DNA of 64,000 nt, taken from Treponema sp. (GTDB lineage: Bacteria; Spirochaetota; Spirochaetia; Treponematales; Treponemataceae). Position numbers and translations under genes: made by a program. Shown piece by piece: positions 1-8,626 of the stretch. Location: positions 80,965-144,964 of the forward strand of contig JAFYZU010000010.1 of assembly GCA_017548565.1 (NCBI GenBank), in the 5' to 3' direction. Below the pieces are notes generated by a model. It saw only the letters and a list, made by a program, of their open reading frames with translations. It was not told the origin of the DNA and did no database searches. The stretch's first letter is position 1; the number at the start of each line of letters is the position of its first letter.

Positions 1-1262
1 CATGTAATGAAACTAATGATAAATATAAACAGGCAATAAAACGTGAAATTCCTATTTATTCCAGAAACAATGATATTCGTTCTGAATTCGAAAGGGATTA
101 CACAAGACTTTTACATTGTGAAGCCTACCGGAGATTAAAGCATAAAACCCAGGTATTTTTTGCACCTCACAATGACCATATCTGCACAAGGATGGAGCAC
201 GTCGGTCACGTTGCATCGGTTGCATCTACAATTTCAAAATATCTGGGGCTCAACGAACAGCTTGCAGTCGCAATTGCAACCGGCCATGATATAGGACACG
301 CACCGTTCGGTCATCATGGAGAAAACTGTCTTAACAATCTTCTTGAACAGAAGGAAGGTACAAACGCACCCAAAAAATTCTGGCACGAAAGGAACAGTCT
401 GTTTTTTGCTGATTTTATAGAAGCACTACCCGATCCCGACGGAGTTGAACAGCCCTTGAATCTTACTTATGCAGTACGTGACGGTCTAATCTGCCATTGC
501 GGTGAAATTGACCAGCAGGGAATCATTCCTCGTGATCATGCAATAGATTTGTATTCAATGAAACGCCCCGGCCTCACCCAGCCTTTTACATGGGAAGGTT
601 GCGTCGTAAAGATTGCAGATAAAATTGCATATTTAGGAAGGGATTTGGAAGATGCACGTGAATACTCAATAATTGACATGTCGTCTTATCGTCAGCTTCG
701 TGAAATTGTAGGTTCAACTCTTGGATTTGAACACAAAGGTGCACATGCACTTCGAAGCGGAAAAGCAATAAATACAACTGTATTAATCAATGATTTAATC
801 GTTGATTTATGTGAACAAAGCTCACCGGAAAAAGGACTCTGTTTTTCAGATCAATATTTTAACTTTATTCTTGAGCTTAAAAAATTCAATTTTGCAAATA
901 TTTACAATCACTGGAGACTTTCTGAATTTGCAATCTATGCAGAAAATATAATCAAAACACTTTTCCGAACACTGCAGAAAGCACAGATTTACGCAAAAAA
1001 CGGACGTGTTGCCCAGATTTTTAAAACATATCCGAAATTATGTTCAACCTTTGAAGACTGGCTTATAAAGCATTCAAATTACAGGGCCTGGTCTACAGAA
1101 AAACACAGTTTTATCGATAAAAAAACTATCCTTCATTACAATACACCGGTTGTTTTCGATATAAATGATAATGAAAGTTATACTAAATGCATAATTGAAT
1201 TTATTTCAGGTATGACAGATCAGTTTGCCATCCAGGTGTACGAAGAGATTATTACATTTTAA
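1..1262 (+). CDS. dgt: dGTP triphosphohydrolase (HD domain), 5'-truncated by the window edge
   Basis: The frame is open from position 3, upstream of the ORF-track start at 192, and encodes FERDYTRLLHCEAYRRLKHKTQVF and TRMEH. Downstream are GHDIGHAPFGHHGE, ADKIAY and a C-terminal FISGMTD, all typical of Dgt. Confidence 0.9.
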   Translation, partial: CNETNDKYKQAIKREIPIYSRNNDIRSEFERDYTRLLHCEAYRRLKHKTQVFFAPHNDHICTRMEHVGHVASVASTISKYLGLNEQLAVAIATGHDIGHAPFGHHGENCLNNLLEQKEGTNAPKKFWHERNSLFFADFIEALPDPDGVEQPLNLTYAVRDGLICHCGEIDQQGIIPRDHAIDLYSMKRPGLTQPFTWEGCVVKIADKIAYLGRDLEDAREYSIIDMSSYRQLREIVGSTLGFEHKGAHALRSGKAINTTVLINDLIVDLCEQSSPEKGLCFSDQYFNFILELKKFNFANIYNHWRLSEFAIYAENIIKTLFRTLQKAQIYAKNGRVAQIFKTYPKLCSTFEDWLIKHSNYRAWSTEKHSFIDKKTILHYNTPVVFDINDNESYTKCIIEFISGMTDQFAIQVYEEIITF

Positions 1263-2612: not shown

Positions 2613-3281
2613 TTAAGCAGAGATTACATTTAATTTTATATAATCACACATATCTTTAAGGGAACTGCAGACCGCTAAACACATTTTTTCGAGTTCTGAA
2701 TCAGGCTGTATCATATCGGGAACCATAATTACGTTTAATCCTGCATTGAATGCGCTTTTTATACCATTTGGGCTGTCTTCAACGGCAATACATTCCTCTG
2801 GTTTAAATCCGATTTTTTCACATGCAATCCTGTAAATTTCGGGATCCGGTTTACTATGAACGACCATATCTCCGGTAACAATTTTTTCAAAAAAACCGAT
2901 TACCCCTGCAGAAGTTAATTGCCTTTCGACAGTTTTTTTTGCAGTTGAAGATGCAAGGGCCAGCTTAAAATGTCCTTTTAAAAAATCAAGTGATTCAGTA
3001 ACATAAGGAAGAAGAGGAATTCCCGATGAAAATTCAATTTCCCTGAAATATTCACCTGTAAGCGATAAAAACTCATCTACATCGAAATCATCACCATAAT
3101 AGTCTTTTAAAAGAATAACAGTATCATCATAATTAGTTCCGCGGCATTTATTGATGATCTGATCAGATGTTTTTTTTAACTTAAGTGTTTCTGCGGCTTT
3201 CTGCCAGGTAATGTCACTTATTCTTTCTGAATCAAGGATTACCCCGTCCATATCGAAAATTAATGCTTTTATTTTACACAT
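2613..3281 (-). CDS. HAD family phosphatase (beta-phosphoglucomutase-like)
   Basis: FDMDGV, KPDPEIY and EDSPNG motifs; SD GGAG lies inside the end of the kinase gene (13-nt overlap). Confidence 0.9.
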   Translation of the reverse strand: MCKIKALIFDMDGVILDSERISDITWQKAAETLKLKKTSDQIINKCRGTNYDDTVILLKDYYGDDFDVDEFLSLTGEYFREIEFSSGIPLLPYVTESLDFLKGHFKLALASSTAKKTVERQLTSAGVIGFFEKIVTGDMVVHSKPDPEIYRIACEKIGFKPEECIAVEDSPNGIKSAFNAGLNVIMVPDMIQPDSELEKMCLAVCSSLKDMCDYIKLNVISA

Positions 3282-4918
3282 TTTAACTCCGATGAAATAT
3301 AAAGAACGTCCTGATACCAGTCAATTAAAAGTGAAAAATATTCTTCTCTGTACCCTTCGCAATTTACCTTGATTTTCCATACAGTACCTGTTTTTATTTC
3401 TGATAAAGGTATCTTTTTTATATCAACCCATTTTCCGCCGTAATTCATCGTGATTTTTGATTTATCGGTAATATCTTCACCAGTCTGACTGTCCTGAACA
3501 AAGGTTTTTATTTCAAGATTACGTTTTGCATTTTTGAGAAGATTGCATTTAAGTGTCTGACGCGGATGATCTACAGTAAACGACTTCCACCAGATATATG
3601 GTCCTGCGACAACCTTTACACGATAATCTCCGTGCTTCAGAAAAACATCGGTCGTATCATAAGTCACGTTTTTGGAAGTATCGCTTATTACTTCGATCGA
3701 TGGCTTTTTGAAAAGATGATCGAATTTTCTCGAGCCTTTTACCGCAAAAATCCTGTCAGAATTCTTTACCTCAGGAATATCCTTGTTATCGTTTTCAAAG
3801 AAAAATGCTTTTACTGGAAGATCGAGATTTGTCGCCAGTGCCCTTGGTATTTCAATTTCTATATTAATAGGTGTATATTTTTTGCGTAAAACAGTCCTGT
3901 GGAAAAATCCGATTTTTAAAAGACCGAAAAATGTTGCAGCCGCAAGAATTACAATCCCTGAAATCAATGCAACCCTTTTTTGAATCCTGTCTTTAGGTAA
4001 AATTTCAGGATAATTATACATTTTAGACGCAATTACTGATTTTGCTATCTGTACCCTTATTTCATGAGTATCGTAATGACTTAAATATCTTTTTACGCGT
4101 CGTAAAACCCTGTCGATATTCTTTGGTCTTGACGAAGCCTTTGGTTTTATCATCCAGTTGATGAGCCGTTCAAGACTTCTCGGAATAGATTTATCGATTA
4201 ATCTTGGTTTAATGTATTTTCCTTTTTTTATTGTCTTGAGAGTTTCAAGCGTAAATGTTCCCGGGTAAGGTTTTGTTCCGGTAAGCATTTCATAAAGCAT
4301 GATTCCAAGAGCATAAATATCTGCACGACGGTCAACTGCCGCACTGTTCTCAAACTGTTCCGGAGGCATATAAGCCGGAGTTCCAAGAGCAATTCCTGTT
4401 TTTGTAAGAGCTTCCTCCTGCTCCTGTGAATCACTTGCAATACCAAAATCGGCAAGCTTTATTTCACCTCTCTTTGAAATCAATATATTGCCTGGTTTTA
4501 TATCCCTGTGAACTATTTCATTTGAATGAGCATATTTAAGGGCATAACATGCGTCCTGCATAAAAAGCATTGCTACAGGATGAGGTAAAGAAGTCTGTTT
4601 CTGAATAAGCTTGTCTAATGACATACCGTCCACAAGCTCTTCAACCATAAATCTGTAGCTTCCTTCGGTAAAATAATCAAAAAGATGGACGATATAAGGA
4701 CTTTGTAAATCAAGAAGAATCTGTGCTTCTTTCTTAAAACGGCTTGCATCTGCTCCTTTCCTGTTTGACATCTTTTTTATAACTACATATCGTTTCAACG
4801 AAGGATGAATTGCTTTATAAACGACACCCATTCCGCCCTTTGCAATTACACCAAGAACCTTATATTTACCGATCATTGAAGGGCAATCTGCCTTTACCGT
4901 CTGTTCCGTTTCTTTCAT
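3269..4918 (-). CDS. Hanks-type Ser/Thr protein kinase with one TM helix and a C-terminal extracytoplasmic domain
   Basis: GGMGVVY, VIK, HRDIKPGN, DFG, GTPAYMPPE and DIYALG motifs; hydrophobic segment RVALISGIVILAAATFFGLL. Confidence 0.95.
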   Translation of the reverse strand: MKETEQTVKADCPSMIGKYKVLGVIAKGGMGVVYKAIHPSLKRYVVIKKMSNRKGADASRFKKEAQILLDLQSPYIVHLFDYFTEGSYRFMVEELVDGMSLDKLIQKQTSLPHPVAMLFMQDACYALKYAHSNEIVHRDIKPGNILISKRGEIKLADFGIASDSQEQEEALTKTGIALGTPAYMPPEQFENSAAVDRRADIYALGIMLYEMLTGTKPYPGTFTLETLKTIKKGKYIKPRLIDKSIPRSLERLINWMIKPKASSRPKNIDRVLRRVKRYLSHYDTHEIRVQIAKSVIASKMYNYPEILPKDRIQKRVALISGIVILAAATFFGLLKIGFFHRTVLRKKYTPINIEIEIPRALATNLDLPVKAFFFENDNKDIPEVKNSDRIFAVKGSRKFDHLFKKPSIEVISDTSKNVTYDTTDVFLKHGDYRVKVVAGPYIWWKSFTVDHPRQTLKCNLLKNAKRNLEIKTFVQDSQTGEDITDKSKITMNYGGKWVDIKKIPLSEIKTGTVWKIKVNCEGYREEYFSLLIDWYQDVLYISSELKCVK

Positions 4919-5925
4919 GAATTTACCTCGTAAATATCTTTTTCTGGATCAAATATTTTATTTTTTGAAACAATTGCAACATTCTGTTCAAGAGGATTAT
5001 GTATCTGAACAAATTTTCCATTTTGTCTTAAGCTGTATTTTCCATTTACCGGTCTGTGTCCTGCAAAATAAAATGCATCTGATGCTGACTTTTTACCAAG
5101 AAGATTTTCAAGGACAGGCTGCACAGTATTATCCTTTACCTGACCGTTCCTGGTCCATATTAAACCGAATACAGTTTCCGGATCTTCTCGTGCATTAATC
5201 AGTTCTTTTCTTGTAAATGGTTTTGACGGTTCTGCATGCGATATTACACAGTTTTTTGCAGAAACAATCAGCGGAAGGGACTGTTCATAAAATGATATTA
5301 AAAAAAGGATGTCGTCACCATAATATTCAGAAATAAACATTTTTACCATCTGCCCTTCTTCTGCATATTTACAGAAAGCATAATCTCCGTTGGCAGTTTC
5401 ATTCAGAATATTTTCGTGATTACCCTTGATAAAATGAAAATTTTCAGGATAATCGCATTTTAATTTCATGATTGCCGTGAGTGTCGAAAAACATTCTGTC
5501 ATTTCGGCTTTCATTTCCGGACCGGTAAAATTATTTTCATAAAATTCATCTTCTATTTTTTTCCATCTTTCTCCGGTATGCTCAGTATGTATTGCATCGC
5601 CGACACAGACTATATATATCAGTTTTTTTTCAAGTGCTTCCTTTACTGACATATCTTTGTTTTTAAGGATTTTATTACCGGGCTTGAATTTTAAAAGATT
5701 GAGTAAAAAAGACGGACGGGCATGTAAATCAGGAACAATTATTACAGGTATATCATCCTTAAGCTCGAGAAGCGCACCCGGATTTCCTGACTCATCCTTT
5801 GGACGATATTCGGGATTTTCTGCTTCAAGAACTTCAGAAACATTATTAACAAGAGAAAATAAAAAATCATGAGAAGGAAGCTCTTTGTTTTCAAGAAGCT
5901 CTTCAATCGTAAAATCTTTATCCAT
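4915..5925 (-). CDS. Calcineurin-like (PPP-type) metallophosphoesterase
   Basis: DLH, GDAIH, GNHE, SHAE and GH motifs; 4-nt overlap with the kinase start. Confidence 0.88.
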   Translation of the reverse strand: MDKDFTIEELLENKELPSHDFLFSLVNNVSEVLEAENPEYRPKDESGNPGALLELKDDIPVIIVPDLHARPSFLLNLLKFKPGNKILKNKDMSVKEALEKKLIYIVCVGDAIHTEHTGERWKKIEDEFYENNFTGPEMKAEMTECFSTLTAIMKLKCDYPENFHFIKGNHENILNETANGDYAFCKYAEEGQMVKMFISEYYGDDILFLISFYEQSLPLIVSAKNCVISHAEPSKPFTRKELINAREDPETVFGLIWTRNGQVKDNTVQPVLENLLGKKSASDAFYFAGHRPVNGKYSLRQNGKFVQIHNPLEQNVAIVSKNKIFDPEKDIYEVNS

Positions 5926-5928
5926 CTG

Positions 5929-6273
5929 TTACGAAATTACCAGATTCATATTTCCTATGGTAATTTTGTCTCCGGGATTAAGCTTTACGTATTTTTCCGG
6001 CGGAATTCTGTTGCCGTTTAAGAAAGTACCGTTGGTCGAATGTTCATCCTTTATAAAATAAACATCCTTGATTTTCTGAATGATAGCGTGCCGTCTGCTT
6101 GCAAGTTTATTATCAACGACAACATCATTGTCAGATTCGCGGCCAATTGTAATTTTTGCTACAAGCTCAATTTTTTTTCTGTTGAACATAAGATAGCTGG
6201 CAGGTTTTTCTGCACCAAAAGAATTGAGCTGCATTCCAACCGGTGATTTAGATTGTATTGTTTCATTACTCAT
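5929..6273 (-). CDS. Stand-alone FHA domain protein
   Basis: IGR, SRRH and STNGT, the conserved phosphothreonine-binding residues. Confidence 0.93.
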   Translation of the reverse strand: MSNETIQSKSPVGMQLNSFGAEKPASYLMFNRKKIELVAKITIGRESDNDVVVDNKLASRRHAIIQKIKDVYFIKDEHSTNGTFLNGNRIPPEKYVKLNPGDKITIGNMNLVIS

Positions 6274-6279
6274 ATTTTA

Positions 6280-6308
6280 ATTATATATCTGATTTTTCAA
6301 CTTTTCAA
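6280..6308 (-). promoter_or_regulatory. Sigma70-type promoter of the FHA operon, leaderless geometry
   Basis: TTGAAA (6308-6303), 17 nt, TATAAT (6285-6280), 6 nt, ATG; no SD. Confidence 0.7.
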
Positions 6309-6317
6309 ATTTTTTAA

Positions 6318-7472
6318 TTAAAGTGATGAATAAACGATGTTTTTCATCTTTCGCGTCAGTTCCCATGTTCCGGCATCTGTTTTCTGCATGAGCATTACAA
6401 TCACAAGAGAATTTTTCAAATCTACGCTCATATAAGGACCAAGCCATCCGTCCCAGCCGAATTCTCCGTTTTCGGTCAAAGAAAAGCATTCACCCTTTTT
6501 CACTGCTACCCTCATAAGATTACAATAAGTGTATCCTGCAAAATGAGGCATTCTCATTTCGAATTTTTCCTGAAGCTTCAATGGTAAATGAGCCGATGAA
6601 AGATATTCGACTGTTTTTTTCTGTAGGATTCGCTTTGAATTATATTTACCGCCGTTTACAAGCATAAGGCAGAATTTTAAATAATCATCTATCGTGGAAC
6701 ACAAACCGGCTCCTCCGCTTTCGAAGGATGGAGCATGATCCATAAACGGTTGAATGCCAAGATTCGGCTTTTCAAATTTAACAGGGTTTGTAATCCCGTC
6801 GCATTTATAAACGGATGAAAGACGATGCTGTTTTTCCTGCGGCACATAAAAATCTGTATCGTTCATACCAAGCGGAATAAAGATTTCTTTTTTAAGAAAA
6901 TCACTGAATTTCATACCGCTTACAATTTCTATAACTGCTCCAAGAATATCAGCAGAAAGACCGTATGCATAATCTGTGCCAGGGCAAAAGGATGGTTCAA
7001 TGCGGGAAAGCTCTTCTGCTATATCAAGAGTTGATATAGAAGATTTTTTCATACAGTCTTCGTTTAATTTTTGAATAAGAACAGATGTCTGTTTTTCACC
7101 TTCCGTTGAATCATCATTAAATGTACCGTAAGTATAACCGCTTGTCATATTAAGAAGGTCCTGTACGGTAATTATATATTTTTGATTTTTAAAAGACGTA
7201 ATGAATGATGAAATATCTGCCTTTAAATCAAGAAGTCCACGTTCAATTAAAATCCATGCAGCAACTGCAGTAACAGGCTTACTCATTGAATATAAACGAC
7301 AGATTGTACCGCGATTAAAGAGTTTTTTATTTTCGATATCGGCAAAACCAGCCTGCCAGTATCCTGTCTCTTTATTATCCTTTACTACGACACAGTTTAC
7401 TCCTGCTACATTGTTATTTCTTACTGCATCATCAAAAACCTTCTGTAAATTACCAAGATGTTTAAAATCCAT
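6318..7472 (-). CDS. Serine hydrolase, beta-lactamase/class C-like family (esterase or amidase)
   Basis: SMSK (SxxK), YAY, GGAGLCST and WDGWLG; no signal peptide. Confidence 0.88.
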   Translation of the reverse strand: MDFKHLGNLQKVFDDAVRNNNVAGVNCVVVKDNKETGYWQAGFADIENKKLFNRGTICRLYSMSKPVTAVAAWILIERGLLDLKADISSFITSFKNQKYIITVQDLLNMTSGYTYGTFNDDSTEGEKQTSVLIQKLNEDCMKKSSISTLDIAEELSRIEPSFCPGTDYAYGLSADILGAVIEIVSGMKFSDFLKKEIFIPLGMNDTDFYVPQEKQHRLSSVYKCDGITNPVKFEKPNLGIQPFMDHAPSFESGGAGLCSTIDDYLKFCLMLVNGGKYNSKRILQKKTVEYLSSAHLPLKLQEKFEMRMPHFAGYTYCNLMRVAVKKGECFSLTENGEFGWDGWLGPYMSVDLKNSLVIVMLMQKTDAGTWELTRKMKNIVYSSL

Positions 7473-8619
7473 TTATTAATCCCCGTTTCAATTTATATGA
7501 TATTATCCTTCGTAAGCTTTCATTAAATCTATATTCAGTTATTTTTCCGGTTAAAACTGCATTTTTCAAGGCATCAAAAGCATTTTTGTAATCAAGAGGC
7601 ATCAGAATCATATCTGCACCTGCAATAAATGCGGCAACGGCACTTTCACCGCTTGTATAATTATTAACGATAGCCTTCATAATCATTGAATCTGTAATGA
7701 TTATATTTTTGTATTTTAATTCCTTCCGCAATTTATTTGTAATAAGCTCATACGACACGGTTGCCGGAAGATCATTTCCCGTAACCTCAGGACACGAAAT
7801 ATGACCGGTCATAATAAAATCCGCATCCTGATTTATTGCCATTTTAAAGGGTATTATTTCGCATTTGAGCATCTGATTCCATGTTTTATAGGAAAAAGCC
7901 TGACCTGCATGAGAATCAGATAATGTATCGCCATGACCGGGAAAATGTTTAAAACATCCGTCAACTCCAGAAACTCTAAGTCCCTTATACATATTCACGC
8001 AGAATTTACCTGCCTTTTCCGGTTCGGTACTATAAGCTCTCGGACCAATTACAGTATTATATTTGTTTGTAAAAACATCTGCGACAGGTGCAAAATCTAC
8101 ATCAATTCCATATTCCTTAAGATAAGAGCCTATCGTTTCACCTATTTCATGTGCCTTGTTTTCAGGATCATCTGCATTTTTCATCTCTTTTAATATTTCA
8201 TCGAATTTGATTTCTTCAAAATCAGGATTATTGGCAATCCGTGCGACAGAACCGCCTTCCTCGTCAATAAAAACAAGCGGTGTCATATCAGAAAGAGAAT
8301 GGAGCTCACCATTTAATTTTTTAAGCTGATTTTTATTCTTCAGGTTTTTATTAAAAAGAACAAATCCACCCGCAGGATATTTTTCATAAAATTCACGCAT
8401 TTTTTCATTTACAGAAAGCTTGCCGTATTCTGAATAACTGTTTATCTGATCGTTTGTGTAACTTTCATCGAGTGCTTCAGGTTTAATTACAAAAAACTGC
8501 CCTATTTTCTGTTCAAGGCTCATGGAAGCAATAATCTGTTCAAGGAGAATGCTTTTTGAGTTATTCGAAAGAGAAAGAAATAATAATGAGCCAAATAATA
8601 TAAAAGCAATTTTTTTCAT
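7462..8619 (-). CDS. nagZ: GH3 beta-N-acetylglucosaminidase (NagZ-type), exported
   Basis: KHFPGHGDTLSDSH NagZ signature, DEEGG, FAPVAD and ITDSM; N-terminal hydrophobic signal. ATG at 8619 preferred over TTG at 8622. Confidence 0.85.
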   Translation of the reverse strand: MKKIAFILFGSLLFLSLSNNSKSILLEQIIASMSLEQKIGQFFVIKPEALDESYTNDQINSYSEYGKLSVNEKMREFYEKYPAGGFVLFNKNLKNKNQLKKLNGELHSLSDMTPLVFIDEEGGSVARIANNPDFEEIKFDEILKEMKNADDPENKAHEIGETIGSYLKEYGIDVDFAPVADVFTNKYNTVIGPRAYSTEPEKAGKFCVNMYKGLRVSGVDGCFKHFPGHGDTLSDSHAGQAFSYKTWNQMLKCEIIPFKMAINQDADFIMTGHISCPEVTGNDLPATVSYELITNKLRKELKYKNIIITDSMIMKAIVNNYTSGESAVAAFIAGADMILMPLDYKNAFDALKNAVLTGKITEYRFNESLRRIISYKLKRGLINGF

Positions 8620-8626
8620 CAATATG

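Follow-up and report, generated by a model that had tools for sequence, protein, structure and literature searches.

A predicted minimal Hanks-type signalling operon of Treponema: an FHA protein, a PPP-fold metallophosphatase and a membrane kinase

Do four closely packed genes in a Treponema genome form one Ser/Thr signalling circuit, or does the circuit end with the third? The genes lie, together with their promoter, at 2613 to 6308 of a 64,000-nucleotide (nt) stretch of contig JAFYZU010000010.1 (Treponema sp., assembly GCA_017548565.1). This whole stretch is called the window here, all positions refer to it, and it belongs to a 2.55-Mb genome that is 96% complete. In the direction of transcription, the genes encode an FHA protein, a metallophosphoesterase (in the following the phosphatase), a Hanks-type membrane kinase and a HAD hydrolase. 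The initial annotation had taken all four as a self-contained reader, eraser and writer system with the HAD protein as a possible small-molecule phosphatase output. Our analysis points to the first three as the organism's single Hanks-type pathway in a minimal three-gene form and places the HAD protein outside the circuit, a reading that we consider likely. To our knowledge, Ser/Thr signalling in spirochaetes is essentially unstudied, and the characterised bacterial kinase/phosphatase/FHA operons that we know of almost all use PP2C. Treponema pallidum and Borrelia have no Hanks-type kinases (PMC1262709). In the literature searched we found nothing on the module and nothing specific on a Hanks kinase, FHA protein or metallophosphoesterase of Treponema or other spirochaetes, in line with the remark in the annotation that such a circuit is not characterised in treponemes. 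Signalling modules of this kind are known, and the locus is an undescribed, minimal or reduced variant of them. It comprises the following genes, with protein lengths in amino acids (aa):

5929-6273, minus strand: FHA gene, 114 aa
4915-5925, minus strand: metallophosphoesterase gene, 336 aa
3269-4918, minus strand: Hanks kinase gene, 549 aa
2613-3281, minus strand: HAD gene, 222 aa

Conservation and co-occurrence of the genes

Gene order was surveyed in 80 related loci with 7-kb flanks. In 79 of these 80 Treponema loci, the phosphatase gene is immediately preceded by the FHA gene, and a kinase with a matching C-terminal region follows the phosphatase directly in all loci with sufficient contig (77/77). 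The order FHA, phosphatase, kinase also recurs in three further genera of the family. Judged by conserved gene order, a criterion that the initial annotation itself had named, its four-gene unit thus holds for these three genes and fails for the HAD gene, which stands immediately behind the kinase in just 16 of about 70 informative loci and lies within 5 kb downstream on the kinase strand in 28 of the 80. The order kinase, lon, HAD is found in 12 loci, lon without a visible HAD gene after the kinase in about 24, and an OTCase gene immediately after the kinase in four. Mbeg1-like hydrolase, FHA, phosphatase, kinase, Lon and HAD is the commonest order in the genus; in the window's genome, lon and the Mbeg1-like gene are each found on other contigs than the operon. 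In a maximum-likelihood tree of the concatenated phosphatase and kinase sequences, the window and all 16 loci with a directly adjacent HAD gene fall into one clade of 21 rows (SH-aLRT 85; 99 for an inner clade of 20 rows), within which the HAD gene was lost from its position behind the kinase at least three times. Since these loci share one clade, the adjacency of kinase and HAD arose once, by loss of lon from between them. In none of the other families or classes examined does the HAD gene belong to the module.

The linkage of phosphatase and kinase extends across the phylum. Among 301 genomes sampled evenly across Spirochaetota and covering 125 genera, 70 genomes from 45 genera contain the phosphatase family, and these belong to many families of the phylum. 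At least 55 of the 66 full-length phosphatase genes are followed by a Pkinase domain in the same orientation, which begins 36-318 nt downstream; the remaining ones are mostly located at contig ends, and one of them (G191) is adjacent to a kinase too. Within the window's own family, a strong kinase match was obtained in all 13 genomes with the phosphatase and in none of the 16 without it, two of which gave weak kinase-like matches only. Three near-complete genomes of the window's genus (G156, G234 and G278) have neither the phosphatase family nor any Hanks kinase, which indicates that the whole pathway is dispensable and was lost as a unit. Many further members of the family among the sampled genomes lack the module as well, including a genus with genomes of 2.1-2.9 Mb and one genome of 1.1 Mb. 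This joint gain and loss is the strongest available evidence that phosphatase and kinase work together. The window's genome itself contains exactly one Pkinase domain and exactly one FHA domain, and a PP2C_2 (PrpC-type PP2C) phosphatase was not found in it. The module is therefore even more self-contained than had been claimed.

At the locus, the genes are as tightly coupled as first described. The stop codon of the FHA gene is separated from the start codon of the phosphatase gene by a 3-nt gap (TAA-CAG-ATG), phosphatase and kinase genes share a 4-nt ATGA overlap with GAGG ahead of it, and kinase and HAD genes overlap by 13 nt, with a GGAG Shine-Dalgarno sequence inside the 3' end of the kinase gene, five bases ahead of the HAD ATG. 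The strong promoter noted earlier could likewise be confirmed:

6280..6308, minus strand: promoter TTGAAA-17 nt-TATAAT, matching 11 of 12 consensus positions

Only 6 nt separate the end of its -10 element from the FHA ATG, and no Shine-Dalgarno sequence lies in between. A -35/-10 pair (TTGnnn-16..18-TAnnnT) ending 5-9 nt ahead of the FHA ATG is kept in 48 of 82 orthologous loci; a corresponding pair is found ahead of the phosphatase gene in 1/83 loci and ahead of the kinase gene in 0/80. Promoter-like sites in general show no enrichment in the region (29 found, 33 expected). The recurrence at this one position supports a real promoter whose location is conserved. A -10 element that abuts the ATG without a Shine-Dalgarno sequence suggests that the mRNA of the FHA operon is leaderless, and leaderless translation of the first gene is probably conserved as well, although a minority of orthologous loci have a GGAG Shine-Dalgarno sequence ahead of the FHA gene instead.

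Kinase, phosphatase and FHA protein

All binding and catalytic motifs that the initial annotation had listed for the kinase, the FHA protein and the metallophosphatase are indeed intact. The kinase scores 187 bits with Pkinase (PF00069) and is, judging from its motifs, an RD kinase of the Hanks (eukaryotic-like) Ser/Thr type: it has the GxGxxG loop (G28-G-M-G31), K48, E64, H137-R-D139, D157-F-G and P186-E187, and its activation loop reads L171-T-K-T-G...G179-T180. Among 27 kinase homologues, the catalytic residues and the activation-loop residues T172 and T180 are invariant. Three parts can be told apart along the protein:

4121..4864, minus strand: catalytic domain, residues 19-266
3917..3973, minus strand: single transmembrane helix, residues 316-334 (Kyte-Doolittle 19-residue maximum 2.51)
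3272..3907, minus strand: C-terminal sensor region, presumably periplasmic, residues 338-549, predicted to form two tandem beta-sandwich domains

The 116 homologues of the C-terminal 212 residues are all Treponema or Spirochaetales kinases, and no Pfam family matches this region. Its AlphaFold (AF2) model is all-beta with a predicted local distance difference test score (pLDDT) of 85.5; Foldseek returned generic Ig-like and carboxypeptidase-regulatory-like matches only. A PASTA-like or PEGA-like ectodomain was ruled out, there being no Pfam match and only generic beta-sandwiches among the Foldseek results. The best NCBIfam match of the kinase is the Stk1/PknB PASTA-kinase model (NF033483), which covers the kinase domain only and reaches 250 bits against a cut-off of 450.

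By its sequence motifs, the 336-aa protein is a member of the calcineurin-like metallophosphoesterase superfamily, although its score with Pfam Metallophos (PF00149), 22.9 bits, is barely above the cut-off of 21.5. In an alignment of 24 family members, D66xH68, G109-D110, G168-N-H-E171, H230 and G289-H290 are invariant, and so is H113 in G109-D110-xx-H113. The dinuclear metal site is complete, with all six metal ligands and the GNHE histidine invariant. A profile of the family searched against the PDB matched PPP-family protein phosphatases only (PP1, BSU1, PP5 and PP2A), over the helix and strand that run into GNHE. The AF2 model of the protein has a pLDDT of 87.9 and a predicted template modelling (pTM) score of 0.90, and its top 50 Foldseek matches are all PP5, PP2A or PP1 (E 8e-14 to 9e-12, template modelling score 0.53-0.66); no ApaH, nuclease or diesterase is found among these 50. 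The label of a PPP phosphatase, as originally given, is thus right for the fold and wrong for family membership: classical membership is ruled out by the signature motifs, as defined in PMC2887360, three of the four being absent.

GDxHG: 0 of 24 family members, with PDxHAR in its place
GDxxDRG: 0 of 24 family members, with GDxxH[TS]E in its place
[ILV]D[ST]G (bacterial and bacterial-like PPPs): 0 of 24 family members
GNHE: 24 of 24 family members

The family has instead a signature of its own, DxHAR / GDxxHxE / GNHEN. No NCBIfam family matches the 336-aa protein, and no curated model recognises its family. The family is small: when 1.84 billion representative proteins were searched exhaustively, no more than 496 clusters matched at E<=1e-3. 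Its fold, its metal ligands and the gene linkage make this protein the presumed cognate Ser/Thr phosphatase of the kinase. The domain also occurs in proteins of 800-1900 aa (P0321, P0333, P0341, P0345, P0348, P0351 and P0372); these were checked for Rosetta-stone fusions and contained no other Pfam domain, and their contigs are too short for context.

The third protein matches Pfam FHA (PF00498) with 82 bits against a cut-off of 20.7, and its phosphothreonine-binding residues G44-R45, S59xxH62 and N81-G82-T83 are intact. Two parts are discernible:

Residues 1-38: N-terminal extension of 38 aa with the motif T5-I6...S10-P11-V12-G13
Residues 41-107: FHA core

Across 83 orthologues, T5, I6 and S/T10 are each conserved in 99% and S/T8 in 88%; P11 and G13 are also conserved, and the consensus is ETIx[TS]xSPVG. 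An orthologue from a distant class carries a matching motif, DDTIIGSSPVG. In its architecture, the protein is GarA/OdhI-like, with a conserved threonine in an N-terminal extension before a single FHA domain, and Thr5 would be the phospho-acceptor.

From the observed gene structure, motifs, fold, conservation and co-occurrence of the triad, we infer the enzyme activities, phospho-acceptor, signal and output of the pathway as follows. The receptor kinase, whose single transmembrane helix would join an RD domain in the cytoplasm to a double beta-sandwich in the periplasm, may sense a cue in the envelope or outside the cell and would autophosphorylate on the invariant Thr172 of its activation loop. 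The 114-aa FHA protein would read phosphothreonine, most likely as a switch of the GarA/OdhI type: the kinase would phosphorylate Thr5, the FHA domain would bind its own tail, and the protein would then be released from, or brought to, a target. The metallophosphatase with its PP1/PP5-like fold would strip these phosphates, in place of the PP2C that is usual in bacterial kinase operons. The triad is predicted to be transcribed from the conserved promoter abutting the first ATG, probably as a leaderless mRNA. In this scheme the HAD gene would be co-expressed here because one ancestral rearrangement of the clade removed lon from between kinase and HAD. A further step is possible, and we propose it tentatively: the 336-aa protein may represent an unrecognised bacterial Ser/Thr phosphatase family with a PPP fold and its own signature, serving, in place of PP2C, as the dedicated eraser of a receptor kinase that is conserved across Spirochaetota, in a pathway that would in this Treponema clade be pared down to one kinase and one GarA-like Thr5 switch. 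If true, no simpler complete Hanks signalling circuit would be at hand for study.

Evidence against the three-gene pathway and alternative readings

Several observations weigh against the reading of the locus as a three-gene pathway with its own eraser and a GarA/OdhI-type switch. Five SpoIIE-type PP2C phosphatases are encoded elsewhere in the genome. The FHA protein failed the equivalog test for OdhI (NF041660; 40 bits, cut-off 200) and reached 60 bits with the FhaB equivalog, for which the cut-off is 125. FHA domains usually prefer a hydrophobic residue at position +3, and the surroundings of Thr5 disagree with this preference. In PPP enzymes, the GDxxDRG motif supplies the His-Asp pair with its Asp and also contains the Arg that binds phosphate. 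Residues matching these (Asp95 and Arg96 of PP1) are absent from the phosphatase, so that its substrate class is unreadable from sequence. Its invariant R70 and R291/R300 are candidates that may stand in for Arg96 and Arg221 of PP1. In addition, a distant member of the phosphatase family (30% identity; L133:228-3255) sits between genes for a TLC ATP/ADP translocase and a cyclic nucleotide (cNMP)-binding protein with no kinase nearby, and the family may therefore not be uniformly linked to kinases outside spirochaetes. The gene context of other distant members was uninformative or lacked a kinase link. The genomic position of this distant homologue is also among the arguments for regarding the metallophosphoesterase as a nucleotide or second-messenger hydrolase (ApaH-like or phosphodiesterase-like) that would modulate the kinase pathway and would not act as a protein phosphatase. 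The absence of three PPP signature motifs, the marginal Metallophos match and the lack of an NCBIfam family fit this alternative too, and the calcineurin-like superfamily does contain nucleotidases and diesterases (PMC2887360). We nevertheless regard it as rather doubtful, given that profile and structure searches led to Ser/Thr PPP phosphatases only, that the linkage to the Hanks kinase is tight and phylum-wide with both genes lost together, and that the genome has no PrpC-type PP2C to reverse the kinase.

The 13-nt overlap and the Shine-Dalgarno sequence inside the kinase gene likewise count against a strict three-gene reading, as they imply that the HAD gene is translationally coupled and co-expressed here, and a local functional tie of the HAD protein to the kinase operon may exist in this organism. 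Together with the 28 of 80 loci in which HAD is found within 5 kb downstream in the orientation of the kinase, this coupled expression is what speaks for a four-gene circuit in which the kinase/phosphatase/FHA system would regulate the HAD protein as its small-molecule output. We judge such a circuit unlikely: direct adjacency is confined to 16 loci of one clade with a single origin and at least three later losses, lon intervenes in 12 loci and OTCase follows the kinase in four, HAD is missing from the module in every other family and class examined, and the protein has no FHA-binding or kinase-related feature, its relatives being housekeeping sugar phosphatases. As a part of the signalling system HAD is ruled out by synteny and phylogeny; its adjacency, which had suggested a small-molecule output, is a by-product of gene order. 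The chance is smaller again that the kinase is a cell-wall sensor like the PASTA kinases, tied to the NagZ-like GH3 and beta-lactamase-fold/PBP4B-like genes upstream. These two genes are of peptidoglycan-recycling or remodelling types, they share the strand of the operon and no terminator separates them from it, and the Stk1/PknB model is the best NCBIfam match of the kinase domain. That match, however, stays far below its cut-off (250 of 450 bits), PASTA repeats are lacking, the ectodomain matches no family, and the upstream pair is confined to the window and to L033, its nearest relative, an Mbeg1-like hydrolase gene being upstream elsewhere. An anti-phage defence cassette, suggested by matches of the kinase domain to the PADLOC models PD-T4-6 and mad6, is extremely improbable. 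These matches cover the generic kinase domain, whereas the FHA, phosphatase and HAD proteins match nothing. Across genus and phylum, the module keeps its synteny and is inherited vertically, with no sign of a patchy, island-like distribution; it comprises the sole Hanks kinase of the genome and was seen in no mobile-element context.

Known systems, the wider module and neighbouring genes

Operons with FHA, PP2C and Hanks-kinase genes are known from the actinobacterial cluster fhaA-fhaB-pstP-...-pknA-pknB, from prpC-prkC and from ppkA-pppA-fha1 of type VI secretion systems. The treponeme locus resembles them in combining a membrane kinase, a phosphatase and an FHA reader in one operon, and in having a kinase domain that is nearest to the Stk1/PknB model. 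It differs in its eraser, a PPP-fold metallophosphatase and not a PP2C/PPM enzyme, with no PP2C_2 in the genome, and in its kinase, which is the only Hanks kinase of the genome and lacks PASTA repeats as well as any link to rodA/pbpA or type VI secretion. With GarA and OdhI of Actinobacteria, the FHA protein shares a small stand-alone format, a short N-terminal extension, a conserved threonine after glutamate and a single FHA domain, and by analogy it is likely to be a direct substrate of the kinase. Here, the motif is ETIxT/SxSPVG as opposed to ETTS, the gene adjoins that of its kinase, and no evidence was found for binding to 2-oxoglutarate dehydrogenase. The phosphatase has the fold of the PPP enzymes (PP1, PP2A and PP5; bacterial PrpA, PrpB, PrpE and Pph2) with a Foldseek E of ~1e-13, their GNHE motif and all their metal ligands; GNHE and the preceding helix read LKxxFPENFHFLKGNHE here and YKIKYPENFFLLRGNHE in PP1. 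Unlike them, it has about 30 extra residues between motifs II and III and lacks GDxHG, GDxxDRG and [ILV]D[ST]G.

By analogy, the nearest functional parallels that involve a PPP enzyme are archaeal. In the archaellum regulatory network of Sulfolobus, ArnA (FHA), ArnB (vWA), the Hanks kinases ArnC and ArnD, and PP2A (PPP) act together (PMC5007285). ArnA is among the closest solved FHA domains to that of the treponeme protein, and both systems combine a Hanks kinase, an FHA protein and a PPP-type phosphatase; the wider spirochaete module described below also has a vWA-FHA protein. On the other hand, the Arn network is archaeal, its parts are not encoded in one operon, and the window's genome lacks vWA and second FHA proteins. 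Among bacteria, the Deinococcus radiodurans operon DRA0331-DRA0334 encodes a vWA protein, a Ser/Thr protein kinase, an FHA protein and a PP2C (bioRxiv 10.64898/2026.01.23.701218). Like this operon and the TerY-P-type vWA/kinase/phosphatase triads, the treponeme locus would encode a push-pull of kinase, FHA protein and phosphatase, and the extended spirochaete form resembles it; the Deinococcus phosphatase, however, is a PP2C with a KI-FHA domain, and no vWA protein is present in the window's genome. A PPP-fold partner with non-canonical motifs and a phylum-wide kinase linkage offers a testable case for a new family of cognate phosphatases. Having a single kinase, a single FHA protein and a single candidate phosphatase, the treponeme is an unusually clean setting in which to ask what is controlled by a Hanks pathway, spared the cross-talk that complicates such work in actinobacteria or myxobacteria.

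In other families and classes of spirochaetes, the module is larger: the phosphatase and kinase genes are followed by those for a 297-aa protein with a C-terminal FHA domain and a vWA-FHA protein. Some of these extended loci also have a small FHA gene 0.8-1.5 kb upstream and a pair of paralogous genes with unknown domains. In another spirochaete class, this pair lies between the small FHA and phosphatase genes (L116:5537-7001, also L118), one paralogue of 291 aa being encoded on the opposite strand and carrying an HU-like DNA-binding tail, and the other, of 196 aa, abutting the phosphatase gene. Homologues of the vWA-FHA protein, the 297-aa FHA protein or the paralogue pair were not detected in the window's genome by tblastn. 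The lack of these extra proteins marks the triad as a reduced version of the larger module, which is spirochaete-wide. In some genomes of the same genus (L021:7273-7992; L024 and L025), the kinase gene is directly followed by one for a protein of about 240 aa that has a winged-helix domain of the OmpR/PhoB type (Trans_reg_C) and lacks a recognised receiver domain. This protein is absent from the window's genome; where present, it might serve the pathway as a transcriptional output.

The HAD protein itself scores 123 bits with HAD_2 and 70 bits with TIGR01509 (cut-off 29.4), has the D10-M-D12 nucleophile motif and stays below the beta-phosphoglucomutase (beta-PGM) equivalog (92, cut-off 189). 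By these profile matches, it is a HAD-IA hydrolase of the beta-phosphoglucomutase family; its nearest relatives are capped small-molecule sugar-phosphate phosphatases, namely the MtlD mannitol-1-phosphatase domain, TM_1254, pseudouridine-5'-phosphatase and beta-PGM. On synteny, it is a clade-specific neighbour and not a conserved member of the module, a passenger that is predicted to be co-expressed.

The named relatives of the locus come from rumen, gut and faecal Treponema, comprising metagenome-assembled genomes (MAGs), T. porcinum, T. bryantii and Treponema sp. JC4 and C6A8. The nearest one, in the MAG Treponema sp. RUI208, shows an identical order of eight genes and a phosphatase identity of 81%. 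Directly upstream of the operon and on its strand, the NagZ-like GH3 gene (7462-8622) and the gene for the class-C beta-lactamase-fold/PBP4B-like protein (6318-7472) overlap by 11 nt; as a pair beside the signalling operon, they are seen in the window and in L033 only. No terminator was found between the operon and the beta-lactamase-fold gene, whose end is 44 nt away, nor between the operon and the OTCase gene downstream, and no terminator-like hairpin follows the HAD gene. Read-through into or out of the operon is thus possible. The 51-nt spacer between the HAD and OTCase genes (2562-2616) contains a promoter-like element, TTAACC-17-(TG)TATTAT, and an AAGGAAA ribosome-binding site, so that the OTCase gene and the ACT-domain gene may have a promoter of their own.

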